Shown one piece after another: positions 1,419 through 20,013 of a stretch of DNA of 20,815 bases. The stretch's first letter is position 1. Each line of letters begins with the position of its first letter. This DNA comes from a virus (taxonomy: Duplodnaviria > Heunggongvirae > Uroviricota > Caudoviricetes): the IMG/VR virus record IMGVR_UViG_2534681773_000020. One strand, written 5' to 3'. The position numbers were made by a program, and so were the translations under genes. The notes under the pieces were generated by a model, which saw only the letters and a list, made by a program, of their open reading frames with translations, had not been told where the DNA came from and did not search any database.

Positions 1419-3890
1419 TTAAAAATCAGCCTGATTCGGGATCAGTTTTTGCCAGATAGCTGAAACGTATTTTGCCTGGTGACGAGCGTCATCAAGTGCA
1501 TTATGGCGCTCACCTTCGAATGGAATAGCCGTTCTGGCATCGAAGTCTATGGCTTTCCCCAGCTCAACGATTGTGCGTACATCGCGATCGTTGTAGTAAC
1601 GCCACGGGCAGGGGATCCCCTGCCGTTCGTATGAACGGCGCAAAATCGTGTTGTCGAAGTTGGCTCCATTTCCCCAGACCTGAACAAAAAATTCACCGGA
1701 GTTTTCGTCGATAAATTCCCGCAATTGTAACAGTGCATCATCTAACGGGATTTCATCGGTCATAATGGCAGATTGCGCTTCGCGTGATTGCTTAAGCCAC
1801 CATTTAATGGTGTCCCGATCAATGACTCCGCCAGCAGTTTCCAGATCGATAGTCTTACTAAATTCCGGTCCCATATCTCCGGTTTGCGGATCGAAAAATA
1901 TTGCACCTATTGAGATGATCGGGGCATCAGGATTTTTTCCCATGGTTTCAAGGTCGATCATTAGATGGTCACACGTCCTGCTGGTGGATGTGATTTCTTG
2001 ATGACCGTTCACCTTAATTGAGTGATCTGCCGTCTCGCCAGTTTCATTATCGCTGGCATGATGCTGATTGCCGCCAGTGTTCTCCTTGTGTGGATGTTCA
2101 GCGCCTTCCATTTCCTCCGGATCATCTTCCTGAACTTCAGGCTGATACTCTTCATCGAATGTTTCCTGGTATGTTGCGTCGCCCATTACCGCGCCACAAT
2201 CAGGGCAGTTGCCACCACCGCTTTGACCGCAGGCGGTGCAGACTTTTTCCGGTTCCTGTTGCGCTACTGGCTCAGGTTGTTTCGTTTCTGGCTCGTTTTG
2301 TAACGCATTTGGGCTGTTTTGTTCCGCTTTCTGGCCGTTCTGTTCCGTTTCTTGTTGGTTCTGATTCACTGAATCGCGGGTTTCAATCCCCTTCACCCAT
2401 TTCGGATCATTCGGGTCGCTAATCCCTGCAACAAATTCACCACGTGATACTGCAAGCAGTTCATCGGCGTCAGGTTGGCTGATATTGGCTGCCTGCATAA
2501 TTTTGTTTACTTCGTCAGCGGTAACTTTTACCGGCCCTGGTTGTGCGGTCGTGTCAGATGCACCAGTATTTTGTTGTGAACCTGAGTATGTACTGTTTTT
2601 GCGGGCGAAATATTCTTCTTTCGTGATTTCAGTAGCCCCGGCAGCCAGCGCCTTATCCAGACCAGAAAGTTTGTTTGCGCGACCGTATTTTTCGCCATCC
2701 TTGTCGGTGAAGAGGAAGTAGAACGGCCCCTCTCGCTCTACAGATGCTTCGACTTCCACTTTGCATTCGGTTTTTTCGTTGTCCGGAATTGCCGTTTCCA
2801 CTGCATCAGTTTCTGGTACTGGCGACGAGAGAGTATCAGTTGCGCTCTGATTTCTTCCTTCATCTTCAAACACGCCCTTTGTAGTCAGGTATTCAGTAAT
2901 GTATTTGTTCAGTGCCACAGGGTCTTTGTGAATGTCGATCGGACGTTCACGGACAAGGCCAAAAATAGTCTGGCGGTCGTAGCGAAGGGCATCAGGCTGT
3001 TTGCGCATTGATGCCGAGATACGCTTCCAGTCTTCGCGGTCGTTGTCGATAACTTCATTTTTTGCCCAGCGATGGATGCTGCCGTCAATGTTTCCGGCAT
3101 CCACATCACCAGGCCAGAGAGCGTAGGCCAGTTCGTCATCCAGTGTTTTCCATGTCTGCTTGTATTCGCGATGAATGGCAGCAATGACCGGGTTGATTTT
3201 TCCTGTTGAATTTTCAGTGTGCTGTTGATTGGTTCTGGCGCGGGCGAGATCAACAACAGACGTGTATTTTCCGGTTTCCTTGCGTTCACCTTCGCGACGT
3301 TTTTTCCAGATGCGCATCTCTGCCTGAATTTCGGGCCATTTAGCACCAGGAATACATTTATGCTTAACCCACCCAATGGCGTGCAACTTAAGCTCCGGAT
3401 ACATGGCGTTAACTTCTGGCATTTTCATCAACGCTTCAACGATATGTCCGTCGAATGTTGCCATGTCTTCCTGCAACAATTCCTGTGCGCTAATAACCAT
3501 ATCAACGGTGATGTTTTCACATGTGTCGAACTTAACCATGACAGCGTTCTGTACTTCAGGGGCCAGCTTGTCAAAAGTGACGTTCATCGGATCGGATTCA
3601 GTCTCAACCGGGACAAAAGAAGCAGACTCCTCATCCCAGCGGTTTTCCTGCATATATTCAGCATCCCATGAATCGAGGGCAGGGCGGGGTATGCCAGGTT
3701 TATCCTCGCAGACAAGAAATTTATAAGCGCAGTCCTGAGCAGCCGGATAATGTTCCAGGAATTGCCAGTGAAATTTTGCTCGAGCACGGCGTTCGTCGCC
3801 AGCTTCAATGGCAGTGGCTACAGCGACTGCACCTTCTTCCTTTATTGCCTGTTCGTCCGGAATGGCGGCGCAAATAAAGACTTTACTCAT
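1419..3890 (-). CDS. Large phage protein with C-terminal DEDDh (DnaQ/RNase T-like) 3'-5' exonuclease domain; N-terminal about 600 aa unknown with acidic Q/E/P-rich linker and CxxC-x8-CxxC zinc ribbon
   Basis: 823-aa ORF; Exo motifs IDLETMG (D-x-E), WGNGANFD and HNALDDARH in last 190 aa; CTACGQSGGGNCPDCGA zinc-ribbon-like motif near residue 540; GAGG 9 nt upstream of ATG. Confidence 0.85.
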   Translation of the reverse strand: MSKVFICAAIPDEQAIKEEGAVAVATAIEAGDERRARAKFHWQFLEHYPAAQDCAYKFLVCEDKPGIPRPALDSWDAEYMQENRWDEESASFVPVETESDPMNVTFDKLAPEVQNAVMVKFDTCENITVDMVISAQELLQEDMATFDGHIVEALMKMPEVNAMYPELKLHAIGWVKHKCIPGAKWPEIQAEMRIWKKRREGERKETGKYTSVVDLARARTNQQHTENSTGKINPVIAAIHREYKQTWKTLDDELAYALWPGDVDAGNIDGSIHRWAKNEVIDNDREDWKRISASMRKQPDALRYDRQTIFGLVRERPIDIHKDPVALNKYITEYLTTKGVFEDEGRNQSATDTLSSPVPETDAVETAIPDNEKTECKVEVEASVEREGPFYFLFTDKDGEKYGRANKLSGLDKALAAGATEITKEEYFARKNSTYSGSQQNTGASDTTAQPGPVKVTADEVNKIMQAANISQPDADELLAVSRGEFVAGISDPNDPKWVKGIETRDSVNQNQQETEQNGQKAEQNSPNALQNEPETKQPEPVAQQEPEKVCTACGQSGGGNCPDCGAVMGDATYQETFDEEYQPEVQEDDPEEMEGAEHPHKENTGGNQHHASDNETGETADHSIKVNGHQEITSTSRTCDHLMIDLETMGKNPDAPIISIGAIFFDPQTGDMGPEFSKTIDLETAGGVIDRDTIKWWLKQSREAQSAIMTDEIPLDDALLQLREFIDENSGEFFVQVWGNGANFDNTILRRSYERQGIPCPWRYYNDRDVRTIVELGKAIDFDARTAIPFEGERHNALDDARHQAKYVSAIWQKLIPNQADF

Positions 3891-3982: not shown

Positions 3983-4174
3983 TTAAAGACCTGCCGGGAT
4001 TTCGTTATTATCCTGGTGAATAACTTTATCGACCGGGTAACAGTTACCGGGAATTTTCTGTTCGGTTGCTGCAGTCACACACTCCTGCATTGTCCTGTGA
4101 ACACTGACTGCAATATCAACTGGCTCTCCGGAAACAAGAAAAACTGTCAGAACAAGTGCAAATGCTGTATTCAT
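3983..4174 (-). CDS. ydfD: YdfD-like small protein (63 aa) with N-terminal hydrophobic/signal-like segment
   Basis: ATG at 4174 overlaps upstream stop in an ATGA junction; AAAGGA 8 nt upstream; translation MNTAFALVLTVFLVSGEPVDIAVSV... recalled as close to E. coli YdfD of the dicB operon. Confidence 0.55.
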   Translation of the reverse strand: MNTAFALVLTVFLVSGEPVDIAVSVHRTMQECVTAATEQKIPGNCYPVDKVIHQDNNEIPAGL

Positions 4175-4359
4175 TGCCAGCATCCTTTTTGTATCGGACG
4201 TAAACGGGCCAGCATTGAAAGAATGCATATTTTATTTAATAGCTCCCGTTCGTGTTTTCTCTTGTTAATGGCATCTTCAGTAAATACAGGGTTACTGATA
4301 GTGACACCAATTTCAAAACAACCTTCAGACGTATTAACGTTTGGTAATAACGTTTCCAT
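4171..4359 (-). CDS. dicB: DicB-like cell division inhibitor (62 aa)
   Basis: Internal ATG at 4359 with GAGGA 7 nt upstream; translation METLLPNVNTSEGCFEIGVTISNPVFTEDAINKRK... matches recalled DicB (MinC-dependent division inhibitor) almost residue for residue; lies directly downstream of DicF homolog. Confidence 0.6.
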   Translation of the reverse strand: METLLPNVNTSEGCFEIGVTISNPVFTEDAINKRKHERELLNKICILSMLARLRPIQKGCWQ

Positions 4360-4528
4360 TATCGCGTCCTCAACAATGAATTTTGTGATGCGGTGCCTGG
4401 TGCCTCCAGGTGACGTTAACCAGTTAACAATTAACGCCGGATACAGAGAATCCACCCATAACACTGTTTTTGGTTTTAACTGTTCCGCGTGCGCTCAGCC
4501 GCATTCACCGCATCACAAAATTCACTTT

Positions 4529-4586
4529 AAAAAGGGCGGCAGAGCAGTCACGGAGTAAAACTGATACCGCCAAACGTCACCAGAAA
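4529..4586 (-). ncRNA. dicF: DicF-like small regulatory RNA (about 53 nt plus U-tract)
   Basis: Reverse complement of 4534-4586 reads TTTCTGGTGACGTTTGGCGGTATCAGTTTTACTCCGTGACTGCTCTGCCGCCC followed by TTTTT, matching the recalled E. coli DicF sequence; located between upstream ORF and dicB as in the Qin dicB operon. Confidence 0.6.
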
Positions 4587-4890
4587 ATTGATAACAGAGG
4601 GCGTTGCAGCGGGGTTGTCACTTAAGCGTATGGTCAACCTGACAACCCGGTGTCCTCAACGGGGAAGGAATAACCCCGCCATACTTACCGCCGCGCCATT
4701 TCGCGGATTGCCACAACCGGAAGCGCACGATCGAATTAAATTTAACGACGACCTATACAGAGAGACTAACTTCGCCGGGCGCTTTCGTGTTATGCCCTGA
4801 CTTTTCAGGGATATATCCTTTTCAGTAAACTGTTAGTGCCGGATTCTTATCCGTGTCCGGCGCACGCACTCTACCTCACCTGTGAATAAA

Positions 4891-5277
4891 TTAATGATTA
4901 ATTGATATTTTGTTATTTGATTCAACTTTCCCATCGGATGTGTGATGCTTTAAATCACAGGAATTAATACTGCTCGCTGTAAAATGATTTTCAAGGGGAG
5001 CTATTCGAATCCCTTTCTTTTTCATTAACAAGCCAAATCCTTTATTAATGATGTCCATTAATTCCAGGAAGTATTTTTCATGTAAATCCTGGTTATCAGA
5101 GAGCTGCTTCTCTTCGTACAGACCGATAAAGGCACGACGCACGTTACCGGATATAGTATCGATGGTTTCTTTTTCTACGGTACTCAGGTCAAGAGTCGCC
5201 AGTTGAGAGCGAACCACATTCGATGCCATTTCCTGGAATGGTACTGGTAAATCTTTAAATTCCATCGTCAACCTCAT
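4891..5277 (-). CDS. Hypothetical protein (128 aa; alternative start at 5265 with GAGG at 7 nt)
   Basis: ORF in early-left operon orientation; start overlaps stop of upstream YdfA-like gene (ATGA); no recognisable motif. Confidence 0.5.
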   Translation of the reverse strand: MRLTMEFKDLPVPFQEMASNVVRSQLATLDLSTVEKETIDTISGNVRRAFIGLYEEKQLSDNQDLHEKYFLELMDIINKGFGLLMKKKGIRIAPLENHFTASSINSCDLKHHTSDGKVESNNKISINH

Positions 5278-5429
5278 CAGTCAGTGTTTCTGGTTAACCA
5301 GCGACGCGCGCCAGCTTCAGTTTTAAACGTTTTGCTTCTGGTATACGTCATCGCGGTAAACGTGCCGTCCTGGTTGGGAAACACGCCGTACACCAGAGAT
5401 TCGTTGTTGCCAAGATCGATAGTATCCAT
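5277..5429 (-). CDS. ydfA: YdfA-like small protein (50 aa), first gene of leftward early operon
   Basis: Internal ATG at 5429 preceded by GAGG at 5 nt; translation MDTIDLGNNESLVYGVFPNQDGTFTAMTYT... recalled as similar to E. coli YdfA; ORF track extends to 5516 with a weaker start. Confidence 0.45.
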   Translation of the reverse strand: MDTIDLGNNESLVYGVFPNQDGTFTAMTYTRSKTFKTEAGARRWLTRNTD

Positions 5430-5554
5430 GCTGACCTCATTTCCCCTTAACGCTGGGGTAGCGGAACTAAAAACCTGCTGCGCTGTTATACAAAGTGTTC
5501 CCGCCGTCATGTTCATACGCCTCGGGCTGGCTACTTACCCCCTGACCACTGCTT

Positions 5555-5628
5555 GGTAACTCGAAGTATTGCCCGGCGTTCTGTGGGGCGGGGTGGGTTG
5601 GTATGTTGTTAAGGTAACAAGAGTTACC
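5555..5628. promoter_or_regulatory. Putative left operator/promoter region: perfect palindrome GGTAAC-AAGA-GTTACC (5613-5628) and imperfect copy GGTAAC-TCGA-AGTATT (5555-5570)
   Basis: Same GTAAC-N4-GTTAC motif recurs at oR side of cI; lies between cI terminator and first leftward gene. Confidence 0.45.
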
Positions 5629-5671
5629 TTTCGAGTCAATACAATGTTGCAAAAGGTACATTTGAGGGCAT

Positions 5672-5698
5672 GAAAAACCCGCAATGAATGCGGGTTCT
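5672..5698 (-). terminator. Intrinsic terminator downstream of cI
   Basis: On minus strand: AACCCGCA-TTCAT-TGCGGGTT stem-loop followed by TTTTC; immediately after cI stop. Confidence 0.5.
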
Positions 5699-5701
5699 GA
5701 C

Positions 5702-6418
5702 TCAGTCTAAGTATTGATGTATTTGTGAAACTTTACCTTTAATGGTGTAACCACCATTCAGTTCGATGGGTTTGTAAAGCGGATTCAGTGACAACAGATA
5801 GATGTTTGGTCCGTCAATCGCAACTTTTTTTAGTGTTACGTTTGGAGTTCCTTCCAATTGGATTAAGATTATTTTTCCCACCAGTTCTCTAATGTTACTT
5901 GAGCATGGTGTGATCAGCACGGTAGATCCGTCGGGGATGGTTGGGAGGCCGTTAGAGTTTGTCATCGCATCTCCCTCAACATGCAATAAAAAAGAGTTTT
6001 CAGCGGTTTTTGTCATGACATCAACCCAATTCTTAATACCAGGAATCTCGGTTACTGGACAACTCATATCCCAATAACCAGCCTGTTCCCACGTTAAAAC
6101 GGGCAACCGGGCGATGTTGTCACTAATGTAAGGGTACTGATTCAGACGCAGATCATCGGCTTTATCGTGACCGTCCTTTCCATAAAGAATCCATTCAGGA
6201 GATTTGGAAAGCAATTTTGACAGTAGATACAAATTCTCACCGTCAGGTTTTGAAGAGCCATTTTCCCATTTTGTTACGGATACACGAGATATGCCGATTG
6301 CTTTCGCAACCTGCTGTTGGGTTAATCCAACGTCTTTTCGACGATTCCGAATACGTTCGCTGATAGTGTTTTTCATGTAACCAATGTTACTACCAAGTGA
6401 TGTTGCTATGGTTGACAT
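5702..6418 (-). CDS. cI: CI-type phage repressor (N-terminal XRE-family HTH, C-terminal S24 LexA-like autopeptidase)
   Basis: 238 aa; HTH QQQVAKAIGISRVSVTKWENG; C-terminal S24-like region with GDAM and KK motifs; no SD upstream of ATG, consistent with leaderless translation as for lambda cI from pRM. Confidence 0.9.
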   Translation of the reverse strand: MSTIATSLGSNIGYMKNTISERIRNRRKDVGLTQQQVAKAIGISRVSVTKWENGSSKPDGENLYLLSKLLSKSPEWILYGKDGHDKADDLRLNQYPYISDNIARLPVLTWEQAGYWDMSCPVTEIPGIKNWVDVMTKTAENSFLLHVEGDAMTNSNGLPTIPDGSTVLITPCSSNIRELVGKIILIQLEGTPNVTLKKVAIDGPNIYLLSLNPLYKPIELNGGYTIKGKVSQIHQYLD

Positions 6419-6438
6419 TGTTATGTAACTATTGTTAC
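6377..6438. promoter_or_regulatory. Putative right operator/divergent promoter region: GTAAC-CAAT-GTTAC (6377-6390) and GTAAC-TATT-GTTAC (6425-6438); TTGACA hexamer at 6412-6417
   Basis: Two inverted-repeat sites with the same half-sites as the oL palindrome, spaced 48 bp centre to centre, spanning the cI start and the cI-cro intergenic region. Confidence 0.45.
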
Positions 6439-12238: not shown

Positions 12239-12475
12239 CGATATGGGAATTCCCATATCGGGTAAAAACGGTTTGCGGTAAAGCGAGAGTTAAGTAGAAT
12301 TGCTGCGGGTGCTTGAGGCTGTCTGCCTCGGGCATGCCACCGTAAGGCAGACAGAGAAAAGCCCCAGTTAACATTACGCGTCCTGCAAGACGCTTAACAT
12401 TAATCTGAGGCCCAATCTATGCTTCACAAACGTAGGTTAGCCTCTTACGCGCCGAAAGGCAAGGAGAAGCAGGCT
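12239..12475. promoter_or_regulatory. Structured leader/regulatory region upstream of hok-like toxin (candidate mok-leader and antisense Sok-like RNA region)
   Basis: 22-bp perfect palindrome CGATATGGGAATTCCCATATCG (12239-12260); 10-bp inverted repeat CTGTCTGCCT/AGGCAGACAG (about 12319-12354); direct repeat TTAACATTA x2 flanking GCGTC/GACGC hairpin (about 12368-12402). Confidence 0.4.
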
Positions 12476-12631
12476 ATGAAGCAGCAAAAGGCGATGTTAA
12501 TCGCCCTGATCGTCATCTGTTTAACCGTCATAGTGACGGCACTGGTAACGAGGAAAGACCTCTGCGAGGTACGAATCCGAACCGGCCAGACGGAGGTCGC
12601 TGTCTTCACAGCTTACGAACCTGAGGAGTAA
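12476..12631 (+). CDS. hokD: Hok/Gef-family type I toxin (51 aa)
   Basis: MKQQKAMLIALIVICLTVIVTALVTRKDLCEVRIRTGQTEVAVFTAYEPEE matches the Hok family signature and the recalled HokD/RelF sequence; AAGGAGAAG SD; in-frame upstream extension from 12419 may correspond to a mok-like frame. Confidence 0.8.
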   Translation: MKQQKAMLIALIVICLTVIVTALVTRKDLCEVRIRTGQTEVAVFTAYEPEE

Positions 12632-15624: not shown

Positions 15625-16674
15625 ATGATTAATACTGTAAAAATATCCAGTTGTGAGTTAATCAACGCTGATTGCCTGGAATTTATCCAGACCTTACCGG
15701 AAAACTCTGTCGATCTGATAGTCACAGACCCGCCATACTTTAAAGTGAAGCCCGAGGGCTGGGATAACCAGTGGGAGGGCGACGATGATTACCTGAAATG
15801 GCTGGACCAGTGTCTGGCGCAGTTCTGGCGGGTACTGAAGCCTGCCGGAAGTCTTTACCTGTTCTGTGGTCATCGCCTGGCATCTGACACCGAAATCATG
15901 ATGCGTGAGCGCTTTAATGTGCTGAACCACATTATCTGGGCGAAGCCGTCCGGACGCTGGAACGGGTGCAATAAGGAAAGTCTGCGGGCGTATTTTCCGG
16001 CAACAGAGCGCATTCTGTTTGCAGAACATTATCAGGGACCGTATCGCCCGAAAGATGATGGCTATGTGGCACAGGGGCGCGAGCTAAAACAGCACGTCAT
16101 GGCCCCGCTGATTTCTTACTTTCGTGATGCGCGTAAATCACTGGGAATAACGTCAAAACAGATAGCGGAAGCCACCGGAAAGAAAAACATGGCTTCGCAC
16201 TGGTTTGGTACCAGTCAGTGGCAGTTACCGAACGAGGGTAATTACAACAAATTGCAGGCGTTGTTTGCGCGTGTTGCGGCAGAAAAACATCAGCGCGGGG
16301 AACTGGAAAAGCCACACCACCAGCTGGTCAGCACATACAGTGAGCTGAACCGGCAGTATACGGAACTGCTGAGTGAATATAAAAATTTGCGGCGGTATTT
16401 CGGTGTGACGGCGCAGGTTCCGTACACCGATGTCTGGACGCATAAACCGGTGCAGTACTATCCAGGGAAACATCCGTGCGAAAAAACGGCAGAAATGCTG
16501 CAGCAGATAATCAACGCGAGCAGTCGTCCGGGAGACCTGGTTGCAGATTTTTTTATGGGTTCAGGTTCAACGGTAAAAGCGGCGATGGCACTGGGGCGTT
16601 GTGCGATTGGTGTTGAGCTGGAGACAGGACGTTTTGAACAGACAGTCAGGGAAGTTCAGGATTTAATCGTTTGA
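15625..16674 (+). CDS. Orphan DNA methyltransferase, beta-class N6-adenine/N4-cytosine (PF01555-like)
   Basis: 349 aa; motif IV VTDPPYF near N-terminus and AdoMet motif I FFMGSGST near C-terminus; no adjacent restriction endonuclease. Confidence 0.9.
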   Translation: MINTVKISSCELINADCLEFIQTLPENSVDLIVTDPPYFKVKPEGWDNQWEGDDDYLKWLDQCLAQFWRVLKPAGSLYLFCGHRLASDTEIMMRERFNVLNHIIWAKPSGRWNGCNKESLRAYFPATERILFAEHYQGPYRPKDDGYVAQGRELKQHVMAPLISYFRDARKSLGITSKQIAEATGKKNMASHWFGTSQWQLPNEGNYNKLQALFARVAAEKHQRGELEKPHHQLVSTYSELNRQYTELLSEYKNLRRYFGVTAQVPYTDVWTHKPVQYYPGKHPCEKTAEMLQQIINASSRPGDLVADFFMGSGSTVKAAMALGRCAIGVELETGRFEQTVREVQDLIV

Positions 16675-16723: not shown

Positions 16724-16799
16724 GGCCCTTTAGCTCAGTGGTGAGAGCGAGCGACTCATAATCGCCAGGTCGCTGGTTCAAATCCAGCAAGGGCCACCA
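16724..16799 (+). tRNA. ileZ: tRNA with anticodon CAT (Ile2 lysidine-type or Met; resembles ileX/ileZ class), CCA encoded
   Basis: Cloverleaf folded by hand: acceptor GGCCCTT/AAGGGCC, D-stem GCTC/GAGC, anticodon loop CTCATAA, T-arm GCTGG-TTCAAAT-CCAGC. Confidence 0.85.
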
Positions 16800-16899: not shown

Positions 16900-16976
16900 G
16901 CGTTGTTAGCTCAGCCGGACAGAGCAATTGCCTTCTAAGCAATCGGTCAGTGGTTCGACTCCACTACAACGCGCCA
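16900..16976 (+). tRNA. argO: tRNA-Arg (anticodon TCT), CCA encoded
   Basis: Acceptor GCGTTGT/ACAACGC, D-stem GCTC/GAGC, anticodon stem ATTGC/GCAAT with loop CTTCTAA, T-arm AGTGG-TTCGACT-CCACT. Confidence 0.85.
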
Positions 16977-17741: not shown

Positions 17742-17922
17742 TTTTTTTATTTGCTGTTTATTAAAAACACTTCTGCATGGTGAATCCCCCTGTGCGGAGG
17801 GGCGACTGGTGTAGGTAGCATTTATTATGTTATAGGCAAGCCGACGCGGGTTCAGTGACACCGGCTGAATTCACCGGGAGGCACCCGGCACCATGCAAGA
17901 AAAAGAATGTGTATGCAAACAT

Positions 17923-17948
17923 GCCCCTCTCCGGAGGGGCATTTTTTA
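17923..17948 (+). terminator. Intrinsic terminator
   Basis: GCCCCTC-TCCG-GAGGGGC stem-loop followed by ATTTTTTAT. Confidence 0.55.
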
Positions 17949-18162
17949 TGGGTAAAAAATGCCCGAATGGGTTCGGGCAATAGCATGAGATACTGATATT
18001 GTTGTGTTGTTATCGTGTGGATTTTAACCAGGGTTTATCAGGCTGCGCAACTGCGTGGCCTTTTTTCATTTCTTGGGCTGTAGTCCCCGTGTGTCATTCA
18101 GGCTTCCGGACTACAGCCCACTCCATATCTGATTTAATACACTATCCCGGCCGGGAGGAATA

Positions 18163-20013
18163 ATGACATTTAAACATTATGATGTTGTCAGGGCGGCGTC
18201 GCCGTCAGACCTTGCGGAAAAGCTGACACACAAACTGAAAGAGGGCTGGCAGCCGTTTGGTAGTCCGGTGGCCATAACCCCTTATACCCTGATGCAGGCG
18301 ATTACAGCAGAAGGTGATGTGGTGGTCAGTGGTGCAACTGAGCCGGATTGGTACTACGTCATCGTACTGGCCGGGCAATCCAATGCCATGGCTTACGGTG
18401 AAGGGCTTCCGCTGCCGGATTCATACGATGCTCCGGATCCGCGCATTAAACAGCTGGCGCGCCGCAGTACAGTTACGCCGGGTGGGGCTGCCTGCAGATA
18501 TAACGATATTATTCCGGCCGACCACTGCCTGCATGATGTGCAGGATATGAGTACGCTGAATCATCCGAAGGCAGACCTGAGCAAAGGGCAGTACGGCTGT
18601 GTCGGCCAGGGCTTACATATTGCCAAAAAACTGCTTCCGTATATCCCGAATAACGCGGGGATCCTGCTGGTACCATGCTGTCGTGGTGGTTCGGCATTCA
18701 CCCAGGGCGCGGAGGGGACATTCAGTGCGGACGCGGGGGCCAGCCAGGATTCGGCACGCTGGGGTGTGGGTAAACCGTTATATCAGGACCTGATTGCGCG
18801 CACCAAAGCTGCATTACAGAAGAACCCGAAAAATGTGTTGCTGGCGGTGTGCTGGATGCAGGGAGAGTTTGACATGAGCGCCGCCACCCACGCACAGCAA
18901 CCTGCGCTGTTTACAGCCATGCTGACACAGTTTCGTGTTGACCTCTCCGTGTTTAACGCGCAGTGCCATGGTGGCAGTGCTGCAGATGTGCCGTGGATTT
19001 GTGGTGACACGACGTATTACTGGAAAAATACATACGCTACCCAGTACGACACCGTGTACGGCGGGTATAAAAACAGGGAGAGTGAGGGCGTTTATTTTGT
19101 GCCCTTCATGACAGACGGTAACGGCGTCAATACCGCCACTAACGCGCCGGCAGAAGATCCGGATATTCCGGCATCAGGATATTACGGTGCGGCATCGAGA
19201 ACGAATGGAAACCAGGTATCATCAAACCGCCCGACACATTTCAGTTCATGGGCGCGCAGGAGCATTATTCCGGATCGTCTGGCAACCGCTATTCTGAACG
19301 CAGCCGGGCGCACCTCAGCCTTCATCAGTGGTAAGGCACCGGAAATCAAACCCTCGCCCGGCGGCAACACGCCATCGGGTCCGTCTGCAGATACGTCCGT
19401 TCGCACAATCTCCCTGCTGCCGACAGCCGGAGAGGCTGCTGCGCAGGGCTGGACCATTAAGGACGGCGGAATTCAGTTGTCGGGTGGTGTATTTAAGATC
19501 GCCAAGCAGAGCAATAAAACCTGGTCCCTGACGCATCCGGTGGATGACGCAATTACCCTGCTGACACAGGGCGGCAGACTGACCTGTAAGTTCCGCCTGT
19601 CAGGCGCGCTGACCAACAATCAGTTCGGGCTGGGGATTTATCTGTATACGGATGCTCCCGTTCCTGATGGTGTGGCGATGACGGGTACCGGTAATCCGTT
19701 CCTGATGTCGTACTTCACTCAGACCACTGACGGCAGAGTGAATCTGATGCATCACAGGAAAGCCGGAAACACGAAGCTGGGGGAGTTCGGCGATTACGGT
19801 AACGACTGGCAGACGCTGGAGCTGGTGTTCACCGCCGGCAGTGCCACGGTTACTCCGAAACTGAATGGAGTGGCTGGCCCGGCATTCCAGGTCATAAAAG
19901 ACAGTCTGACACTGGGGCTGAATGCGCTGACGCTGACGGATATTACCAAAAATGCAGCGTATGGCGTTGAGATAGAAAGTCTGGTGCTGGAGATAAATGC
20001 ACCGGCAGCATAA
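18163..20013 (+). CDS. nanS-p: Prophage sialate 9-O-acetylesterase (NanS-p type; N-terminal DUF1737-like region plus SGNH/SASA esterase domain)
   Basis: 616 aa; GGGAGGAA SD; N-terminus MTFKHYDVVRAASPSDLAEKL; SASA block VLAGQSNAMAYGEG; the position downstream of the late tRNAs is where Stx phages carry this gene. Confidence 0.8.
   Translation: MTFKHYDVVRAASPSDLAEKLTHKLKEGWQPFGSPVAITPYTLMQAITAEGDVVVSGATEPDWYYVIVLAGQSNAMAYGEGLPLPDSYDAPDPRIKQLARRSTVTPGGAACRYNDIIPADHCLHDVQDMSTLNHPKADLSKGQYGCVGQGLHIAKKLLPYIPNNAGILLVPCCRGGSAFTQGAEGTFSADAGASQDSARWGVGKPLYQDLIARTKAALQKNPKNVLLAVCWMQGEFDMSAATHAQQPALFTAMLTQFRVDLSVFNAQCHGGSAADVPWICGDTTYYWKNTYATQYDTVYGGYKNRESEGVYFVPFMTDGNGVNTATNAPAEDPDIPASGYYGAASRTNGNQVSSNRPTHFSSWARRSIIPDRLATAILNAAGRTSAFISGKAPEIKPSPGGNTPSGPSADTSVRTISLLPTAGEAAAQGWTIKDGGIQLSGGVFKIAKQSNKTWSLTHPVDDAITLLTQGGRLTCKFRLSGALTNNQFGLGIYLYTDAPVPDGVAMTGTGNPFLMSYFTQTTDGRVNLMHHRKAGNTKLGEFGDYGNDWQTLELVFTAGSATVTPKLNGVAGPAFQVIKDSLTLGLNALTLTDITKNAAYGVEIESLVLEINAPAA

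Follow-up and report, generated by a model that had tools for sequence, protein, structure and literature searches.

On its minus strand the window, by which we mean the whole 20,815-nucleotide stretch analysed here, carries what is, judged by its sequence, an intact and genuine dicBF operon of an E. coli lambdoid prophage. The explanation that we favour as a whole, at a probability of roughly 0.8, is an intact, Qin-like dicBF operon under a repressor-controlled pL promoter, with a repressor that is not directly cleavable in the SOS response. The dicBF arrangement is already known, and there is nothing new in the finding itself; dicBF loci are well documented in the lambdoid prophages of pathogenic E. 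coli and this exact sequence is annotated in RefSeq.

Composition of the dicBF operon

The original prediction had placed a dicB operon with DicF inside the early-left operon of a CI/Cro-type prophage, and searches with Rfam, Pfam, NCBIfam and blastn all support that identification. The five elements it listed (YdfA, an unknown ORF, DicF, DicB and YdfD) all lie on the minus strand, flanked by the repressor and exonuclease genes, in the order ydfA, orf124, DicF, dicB, ydfD. Two parts of the region align with the Qin prophage of K-12 by blastn, 4884-3800 with 93.7% identity and 5468-5298 with 94.7%, and the segment between the two matches has been replaced, so that a single ORF takes the place of ydfB-ydfC, as had been proposed, albeit of 124 aa rather than 128. 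By these alignments the locus occupies the same place as the K-12 Qin dicBF operon and consists of most of the same DNA. In an O55:H7 sequence that is 100% identical, the RefSeq annotation gives DicB, DUF1482 and DUF1391.

The 53-nt DicF sRNA lies at 4534-4586 on the minus strand. The covariance search proposed for it returned a match to RF00039 at 4534-4585(-) that spans model positions 1-52 of 52 and scores 76.7 bits (E 1.2e-15) against a gathering score of 48, and over 85 nt DicF and its flanks, T-tract included, match K-12 dicF with 100% identity. Its terminator hairpin, which was not called by a generic promoter/terminator scan, is followed by the T-tract at 4529-4533. On the strand that also encodes dicB, DicF precedes that gene by 174 nt, within DNA that is colinear with Qin. 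It would be expected to behave as DicF does in K-12, and its properties beyond the sequence are taken from work on that strain (PMC10448788, PMC5069750). The untranslated spacer upstream of dicF (4587..4890, minus strand) falls within the 93.7% blastn match and is homologous to the ydfC-dicF spacer of Qin, which in K-12 contains RNase III and RNase E processing sites (PMC10448788); processing by the same two enzymes may take place here.

Between dicF and dicB, the spacer that forms the dicB 5′ UTR (4360..4533, minus strand) is predicted to be structured. Its multi-stem domain is closed by a 19-bp long-range helix between 4506-4524 and 4377-4395, whose end lies 6 nt ahead of the dicB Shine-Dalgarno sequence, and the fold of 4340-4600 has an MFE of -96.8 kcal/mol (z = -5.6 relative to shuffled sequences). 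The spacer also gives a sub-threshold match to STnc100 (40.1 bits, E 1.4e-6), as does the dicF-dicB spacer of K-12 Qin (34.4 bits). It may act as an RNase III substrate or as a translational control element.

The 62-aa ORF at 4171-4359 (minus strand) is indeed the cell-division inhibitor DicB, scoring 127.4 bits with Pfam DicB (PF05358, cutoff 27) and 132.7 with NCBIfam NF049927 (cutoff 100). It shares 55 of 62 residues with K-12 DicB, the seven substitutions lying mostly within the last 9 residues, and RefSeq labels the identical sequence dicB. In K-12, division inhibition by DicB depends on MinC/ZipA (PMC6832061). The 63-aa ORF at 3983-4174 (minus strand), whose start overlaps the dicB stop (ATGA), was likewise correctly assigned to YdfD: it scores 88 bits for DUF1482 (cutoff 25) and has 59 of 63 residues identical to the K-12 protein, which is a lysis protein (PMC8835842). 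Next in the leftward operon comes the gene for an 823-aa exonuclease (1419..3890, minus strand; Pfam Rv2179c-like, 228.5 bits), and the homology to Qin extends into its start. Its homologue is annotated YdfE_N/YdfE_C, and the gene is full length here whereas ydfE is a pseudogene in Qin.

At the promoter-proximal end, the reading of a YdfA-like ORF was right as to identity (DUF1391, 97.2 bits, cutoff 27.3; 45 of 50 residues identical to K-12 YdfA) and over-extended as to its length of 79 aa and its upper bound of 5516. The extension is out of frame in a relative (L007), where the upstream frame meets a stop, and the homology to Qin extends upstream of the ATG at 5429 by only some 40 nt; we therefore place ydfA at 5277-5429 (minus strand), encoding 50 aa. 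The unknown ORF downstream of it is also present, although a length of 124 aa, with the start at 5265 (4891..5265, minus strand), suits it better than the proposed 128 aa, given a GAGG Shine-Dalgarno sequence, the common start MEFKDL of all homologues and a PHROG alignment that begins at residue 5. It matches phrog_6937 (unknown function) with 255 bits, and searches of Pfam, NCBIfam and the named PHROGs gave no match. All its homologues, from Escherichia and Salmonella, are annotated 'hypothetical protein', and comparison with YdfB and YdfC found no similarity. The N-terminal 55 or so residues are conserved and the C-terminus is mosaic; a low-confidence AlphaFold2 model built from an 18-sequence alignment (pLDDT 60, pTM 0.37) predicts three helices and a disordered tail. 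The ORF is found at ≥80% coverage in 574 genomes.

Compared with Qin, in which ydfABC-dicF-dicB-ydfD stands under DicA/DicC, the window thus shares the gene order, DNA that is 93.7% identical over a stretch beginning 300 nt ahead of dicF and reaching past ydfD into ydfE and 94.7% identical over ydfA, an identical DicF, and protein identities of 89% for DicB, 94% for YdfD and 92% for YdfA. The structured dicF-dicB spacer and a promoter with an operator in its spacer are also common to both. The differences are the 124-aa ORF in place of ydfB-ydfC, operator half-sites of GTAAC/GTTAC as opposed to the TTAGT/ACTAA-like ones of Qin, a leader of about 135 nt of the Rac type that is absent from Qin, a repressor longer than DicA, with an S24 domain (Ala standing at its nucleophile position) that DicA does not have, and the lack of rem in the window.

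Promoters, operators and the immunity repressor

Transcription of the operon is predicted to begin at a pL-type promoter at 5611..5639 on the minus strand, comprising a -35 element TTGACT (5639-5634), a 17-nt spacer and a -10 element TACCTT (5616-5611), with a single operator, GTAACTCTTGTTAC (5614-5627), overlapping the spacer and the -10. This promoter aligns position-for-position with dicBp of Qin (TTGACC-17-TAATCT), which has its own operator in its spacer, and is conserved in the relatives L007 and L014. A generic promoter/terminator consensus scan missed it because its -10 matches at only 3 of 6 positions, and the assignment accordingly rests on the alignment with Qin dicBp. Further 14-bp palindromes of the form GTAAC-N4-GTTAC define a right operator region (6377..6438): the one at 6425-6438 overlaps the spacer and -10 of a predicted pR (TTGACA-18-TACCCT, hexamers taken directly from the sequence) upstream of cro, and the one at 6377-6390 lies directly against the ATG of Met15 in the repressor gene. 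A pattern search found three perfect sites in the window where 0.28 would be expected, and the three operators hold the same relative positions in L007 and L014. Directly 3′ of the repressor stop codon, a hairpin followed by a T-run (CCCGCA-loop-TGCGGG-TTTTT; 5673..5696, minus strand), also kept in both relatives, is a putative terminator.

Between pL and ydfA lies a conserved untranslated leader (5469..5604, minus strand), 96-97% identical to the leader that stands downstream of racR and upstream of ydaG-ydaF-kilR in the Rac prophage of K-12, and 86-97% identical in several coliphages. In O157:H7 genomes, the match within this immunity region is limited to the leader. The leader sequences are too alike for covariation analysis. 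We considered an antitermination RNA, of the lambda N/nut or HK022 put kind; the leader is not predicted to have unusual structure (fold z-score +0.65), and simple pattern tests of the window found no boxA, no second copy of the leader, downstream of pR or elsewhere, and no ORF between pL and ydfA. A lambda-type N/nut system was not seen in these tests, nor was an antitermination factor or a nut or put site that could account for transcription past the DicF terminator into dicB. The layout nevertheless resembles that of lambda and Rac, in which kil and kilR encode FtsZ inhibitors in the pL operon, in that the immunity repressor governs an early-left operon that includes a host division inhibitor, although the effectors are unrelated: an sRNA on ftsZ mRNA and a MinC-recruiting peptide here, Kil peptides there.

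The repressor gene (5702..6418, minus strand; true start likely Met15, with its ATG at 6376) encodes an HTH_3 domain (62.5 bits) and a Peptidase_S24 domain (61 bits) in Pfam, and was originally described as LexA-like CI. Much of that description stands, as the protein lines up with lambda CI, P22 C2 and LexA in domain architecture, at the Ala-Gly site and at the catalytic Lys, its HTH being closest to that of P22 C2. Aligned to lambda CI (3bdn), the repressor has QAG opposite the QAG of the Ala111-Gly112 scissile site and KK, invariant across the family, opposite Lys192. What does not stand is the nucleophile: the repressor reads GDAM where lambda CI reads GNSM, placing Ala (codon GCG at 5966-5968) at the Ser149 position. 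In contrast to self-cleaving S24 repressors, this one would therefore be functionally ind--like, and direct RecA-stimulated self-cleavage is unlikely. The corresponding mutant of LexA, S119A, is wholly unable to self-cleave (PMC4980697).

In an alignment of homologues, 17 of 22 members of the repressor family have Ser at the nucleophile position. The Ala (GCG) allele is nonetheless the dominant one, present in 682 genomes; when GCG is exchanged for a TCG Ser codon in the otherwise unchanged 41-nt sequence, no genome matches, and a related Ser-bearing allele occurs in eight. A Salmonella relative with a 68% identical repressor has the same Ser-to-Ala change, and other relatives are instead without the Ala-Gly site.

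The HTH of the repressor shares 57% of its residues with DicA, and the Cro-like protein shares 39% with DicC. The NCBIfam DicA model scores 79.4 bits over the repressor HTH only, below its cutoff of 101, and the DicC model 56.1 bits on the Cro-like protein (cutoff 130), which also matches Pfam P22_Cro (59.4 bits, cutoff 30.2). Both proteins are thus homologues of DicA and DicC without being their orthologues, and the immunity region, which had been contrasted with the dicA/dicC control of Qin, is better seen as a relative of dicA/dicC than as another kind of switch. A YdaT-like gene follows cro; with regard to the YdaS/YdaT label given to this region, YdaT_toxin scores above its cutoff (40.6 bits, cutoff 21), and YdaS_toxin scores below its own on the Cro-like protein (18.5 bits, cutoff 30).

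Control of the operon and alternative explanations

These comparisons enable us to propose a model for dicBF control. Transcription would run leftward from the sigma-70 pL-type promoter (5639-5611), and the operon would be held off by the prophage repressor, in which a DicA/P22-C2-type HTH precedes an S24 domain with Ala at the nucleophile position, bound to the GTAAC-N4-GTTAC sites at pL and at the divergent pR/pRM. By analogy with K-12, a failure of repression would yield a polycistronic RNA from which RNase III and RNase E would excise the 53-nt DicF, its 3′ end being formed by its own terminator, and DicF would base-pair with ftsZ and other mRNAs. Read-through RNA would give DicB, which would bring MinC to the septum and block ManYZ-dependent phage DNA entry, as well as the lysis protein YdfD. 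Counting against the model are the weak -10 of pL and the failure to find an antitermination element in the window. The products and processing steps of this model come from K-12 and EHEC work (PMC10448788, PMC6832061, PMC5069750, PMC7873438, PMC8835842).

The Ala nucleophile, together with the relationship of the HTH to DicA and of Cro to DicC, indicates that control is probably Qin-like and not by direct RecA cleavage. Derepression would more probably come about through Cro-dependent bistable switching, through destabilisation of the repressor, modelled on the effects of heat and urea in Qin, or through an antirepressor encoded elsewhere. The otherwise conserved S24 domain could be cleaved in trans by another S24 protein, or could have a structural role in dimerisation.

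The original prediction, in which SOS-type induction would act through a LexA-like CI, is undermined by the Ala at the Ser149 position and by the failure to find Rem or a perfect LexA box in the window. A scheme in which activated RecA cleaves the CI-like repressor, so that pL is derepressed and DicF/DicB division arrest accompanies prophage induction, is one that we consider improbable. It would account well for the full-length S24 domain with its Ala-Gly site and catalytic Lys, and the L007 allele, 87% identical, has both the Ser and the same pL, operator and ydfA layout, from which it follows that the ancestral arrangement was probably SOS-inducible. [quoted passage not shown] The SOS response might still act indirectly, as a LexA-controlled antirepressor could be encoded beyond the 20.8-kb window. 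More broadly, it is possible, though we would not put it forward as the probable answer, that the repressor, itself non-cleavable, is overcome by an antirepressor from outside the window or from another prophage, giving an indirect SOS link or an inter-prophage one. Such control is known for DicA in Qin, on which Rem acts, and for Gifsy phages, which have LexA-controlled antirepressors (PMC10448788); the repressor HTH shares 57% identity with DicA, and the carrier genomes hold several lambdoid prophages (a median of two and up to nine query matches). The window itself offers nothing of the kind: tblastn found no Rem homologue, no candidate antirepressor was seen, there is no perfect LexA box (CTGT-N8-ACAG), and the sole near-consensus box, at 15633, lies where a DNA methyltransferase ORF begins, not an antirepressor.

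That the module is a decaying, functionless remnant, hitch-hiking in a defective prophage, seems very unlikely. With its catalytic Ser lost, the repressor may have locked the prophage in, and the middle of the operon is mosaic, but no ORF is broken, identities to the K-12 proteins are 89-94%, DicF matches that of K-12 at 100%, 671 genomes retain the arrangement, isolated phages contain the same module, and activities have been demonstrated for the Qin and EHEC copies (PMC6832061, PMC7873438). A Qin-like operon behind a repressor that RecA does not directly inactivate remains the reading that we prefer.

Distribution and significance

The arrangement had been presented as distinctive, and proves to be common. 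A 2.8-kb query covering it was matched at ≥80% coverage in 671 of 5426 complete E. coli genomes (about 12%), with 100% identity in one O55:H7 strain; carrier genomes have a median of two, and at most nine, places that match. In the isolated phages Tritos and mEp460 the dicBF module occupies the same position, between exo and the immunity region, and DicF scores above the Rfam cutoff in both as well as in the relative L014. These phages, CP-933M/O/P and the Sakai prophages share the module while differing in immunity region and middle cassettes, Tritos having a CI of 139 aa and mEp460 a DicA/C2-type repressor of 135 aa. Previous work has described dicBF loci in many different prophages (PMC5069750, PMC6832061) and several copies per genome, four in EHEC (PMC5069750, PMC7873438).

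The repressor guarding dicBF in about 12% of complete E. coli genomes thus looks like a natural ind- mutant, and DicF and DicB expression from these copies should therefore not be presumed to be driven by DNA damage. This bears on how DicF dosage and antibiotic induction are read in strains of the O55, O111 and O26 type. The roles at stake are the regulation of virulence and metabolism by DicF in EHEC-type strains and the blocking of phage entry by DicB. The change from Ser to Ala, with the rest of the S24 domain kept, might reflect repeated selection to uncouple the dicBF prophage from the SOS response, a suggestion that we make only tentatively. If it is true, the repressor would be a permanent lock, and dicBF would have become a host-controlled module that no longer serves lytic development, with roles in phage defence and in the regulation of virulence at low oxygen.

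The dicBF operon and its relation to Qin

A complete dicBF operon occupies the minus strand at 3983-5639. An Rfam search of the whole window gave a full-length DicF match at 4534-4585(-), scoring 76.7 bits (gathering score 48; E 1.2e-15). Identity to K-12 dicF is complete over 85 nt, which take in the 53-nt RNA, the sequence on either side and the T-tract of the terminator. The associated genes are likewise intact: dicB (4171-4359, -) encodes 62 aa matching Pfam DicB at 127 bits and NCBIfam NF049927 at 132.7 bits (cutoff 100), with 55/62 residues identical to K-12 DicB; ydfD (3983-4174, -), overlapping the dicB stop, encodes a 63-aa DUF1482 match (59/63 identical to K-12 YdfD); and ydfA (5277-5429, -), upstream in the operon, encodes a 50-aa DUF1391 match (45/50 identical to K-12 YdfA). 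Because these parts match their families and two blocks, window 4884-3800 (93.7%) and 5468-5298 (94.7%), are colinear by blastn with Qin, the cryptic prophage of E. coli K-12, the original prediction of a dicB operon with DicF, and of DicB- and YdfD-like 62-aa and 63-aa products, is confirmed.

Between the two blocks the ydfB-ydfC segment of Qin is swapped in the window for unrelated DNA, in which a single ORF without assigned function replaces it, as proposed (4891-5265, -). The ORF had been read as 128 aa; a start at the ATG at 5265, giving 124 aa, is preferred because a GAGG Shine-Dalgarno lies 6 nt upstream, MEFKDL begins all homologues and the PHROG profile alignment starts at residue 5. 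Profile searches placed it in no Pfam or NCBIfam family and in phrog_6937 (unknown function); its N-terminal ~55 residues are conserved among homologues, its C-terminus is mosaic, and its predicted structure comprises three helices at low confidence. The 79-aa YdfA-like ORF that had set the upper bound of the module at 5516 was over-extended and is rejected: Qin homology begins only ~40 nt before the ydfA ATG at 5429, and in L007, a relative with an 87% identical repressor allele, the upstream frame runs into a stop, so YdfA is the 50-aa protein.

The dicF-dicB spacer, 4360-4533(-), has a very stable fold (z-score -5.6 for 4340-4600), in which a 19-bp closing helix pairs 4506-4524 with 4377-4395; K-12 differs from the window at two positions of this helix, and at both the pairing is preserved as G-U. 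Its match to Rfam STnc100 is below the gathering score of 47, at 40.1 bits in the window and 34.4 bits in K-12 Qin (L002 5433-5642). The spacer may serve as a substrate for RNase III or as an element controlling dicB translation.

E. coli O55:H7 USDA5905 carries the 2.8 kb from ydfD to cro with 100% identity, and the RefSeq annotation there names DUF1482, dicB, a hypothetical protein, DUF1391, a 'LexA family protein', a Cro/CI regulator and a YdaT-family protein. Of 5426 complete E. coli genomes, 671 contain at least 80% of this stretch and 4766 contain parts of it; the 124-aa cassette occurs in 574 genomes and the window's repressor allele in 702. The isolated phages Tritos, in which DicF is annotated, and mEp460 keep the order exo-ydfD-dicB-DicF-...-ydfA-repressor and have immunity regions other than the window's. 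Published work places dicBF in various prophages across many E. coli, more than one copy being present in O157:H7 Sakai and EDL933 (PMC5069750, PMC6832061), and reports that EHEC has DicF four times over (PMC7873438). Given these genomes, phages and reports, the operon is one more copy of an element already known.

Promoters, operators and the immunity switch

The repressor gene (5702-6418, -; annotated 238 aa) ends in a hairpin and T-run (5673-5696, -), and the predicted leftward promoter pL, TTGACT-17-TACCTT at 5639-5611(-), lies ~35 nt beyond. Its spacer and -10 coincide in part with a perfect palindrome, GTAACTCTTGTTAC (5614-5627). Two further palindromes of this type lie between repressor gene and cro, at 6377-6390 and 6425-6438, the latter overlapping the predicted cro promoter pR (TTGACA-18-TACCCT) in the same register, so that pL and pR share operators. 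These three perfect sites compare with 0.28 expected by chance, and their relative positions are kept in L007 and in L014, a further relative carrying DicF. The true start of the repressor is probably Met15 (ATG at 6376), directly beside the operator, since operator 6377-6390 abuts that codon, several homologues start there, and the conserved 'NIGY' of longer annotated forms is the operator GTAACATTGGTTAC translated; the first 14 annotated codons (6377-6418) share sequence with the operator and with the pR -35 region.

The layout of pL aligns position-for-position with that of Qin dicBp and its operator, which is a different one. The repressor HTH is 57% identical to Qin DicA and Cro 39% identical to DicC; the repressor matches the NCBIfam DicA model over the HTH only, at 79 bits where the cutoff is 101. 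Cro passes Pfam P22_Cro and does not reach the YdaS_toxin cutoff. On this evidence the immunity switch and Qin's belong to one family. The original prediction had contrasted DicA/DicC with a LexA-like CI; the S24 peptidase domain is indeed present, and the shared family of the switches qualifies the contrast.

From the predicted pL start runs an untranslated leader of ~135 nt (5469-5604, -), absent from Qin and from mEp460. Its sequence matches the leader downstream of racR in K-12 Rac (the Rac pL leader) at 96-97% identity, and several coliphages whose repressors are unrelated have it at 86-97%; it has no predicted structure, no boxA and no second copy within the window. No N/nut-like element was found that would carry transcription past the DicF terminator to dicB. 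By analogy with K-12 and EHEC, the operon would be transcribed from pL as one RNA, DicF would pair with ftsZ and also xylR, pykA and pchA, DicB would act via MinC/ZipA and on ManYZ, and YdfD would serve as a lysis protein (PMC10448788, PMC5069750, PMC6832061, PMC7873438, PMC8835842).

Other features of the window

The integrase (1-1119, -) differs from that of the otherwise best-matching O55:H7 prophage, which resembles the window only from 1410 onwards; relative to this closest relative, the integration module has been exchanged. A sok antisense RNA match (116.2 bits, 12307-12481, +) adjoins a presumed hokD at about 12476-12631(+), placed there by the coordinate offset between the window and L001, which has an annotated hokD; in the early-right region they would make up a type I toxin-antitoxin pair, as in Qin. 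At the start of a DNA methyltransferase ORF (15625-16674) lies a near-consensus LexA box, TACTGTAAAAATATCCAGTT at 15633-15652(+), which departs from the CTGT/ACAG core at one position and from the 20-mer consensus at four. Downstream of this ORF are two tRNA genes, 16724-16796(+) and 16900-16973(+) (Rfam tRNA, 72.5 and 67.3 bits), followed by a full-length STnc100 sRNA (153.6 bits, 17749-17953, +) immediately convergent with a perfect match to the anti-GcvB sRNA AgvB (96.5 bits, 17954-18015, -). Both sRNAs are situated upstream of a 616-aa ORF (18163-20013); in matching genomes its counterparts carry the annotation SASA family carbohydrate esterase, and the interval between the tRNA genes and this ORF contains no stx gene.

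The repressor and SOS induction

In a HMMER alignment to lambda CI, the repressor places QAG opposite the Ala111-Gly112 site and KK opposite Lys192, and GDAM opposite GNSM, so that the Ser149 position is Ala (GCG, 5966-5968). On this alignment the S24 domain is without its nucleophile Ser, while the Ala-Gly site and Lys are kept. Ser occupies this position in 17/22 family members and is kept in the 87% identical allele; Ala is found in the window, in E. coli clusters 98% and 89% identical and in a Salmonella protein of 68% identity. In other relatives (Arsenophonus, Symbiopectobacterium) the Ala-Gly site is lost instead. With a 41-nt query centred on the nucleophile codon, counted only where a 28-mer spanning the codon was exact, 682/5426 complete E. 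coli genomes had the GCG form and none had an otherwise identical sequence with TCG; the Ser-bearing L007-type allele was present in 8.

The proposed coupling of division arrest to SOS is therefore only partly supported: the nucleophile is replaced, and the window holds neither a Rem homologue nor a perfect LexA box. [quoted passage not shown] An indirect SOS link may run via an antirepressor encoded elsewhere. Most likely, the operon is under Qin-like control and not under direct RecA-stimulated repressor cleavage. The same pL-ydfA layout in the Ser-bearing relative L007 suggests that the ancestral arrangement was SOS-inducible, and the point worth experimental follow-up is a widespread natural 'ind-like' repressor allele.
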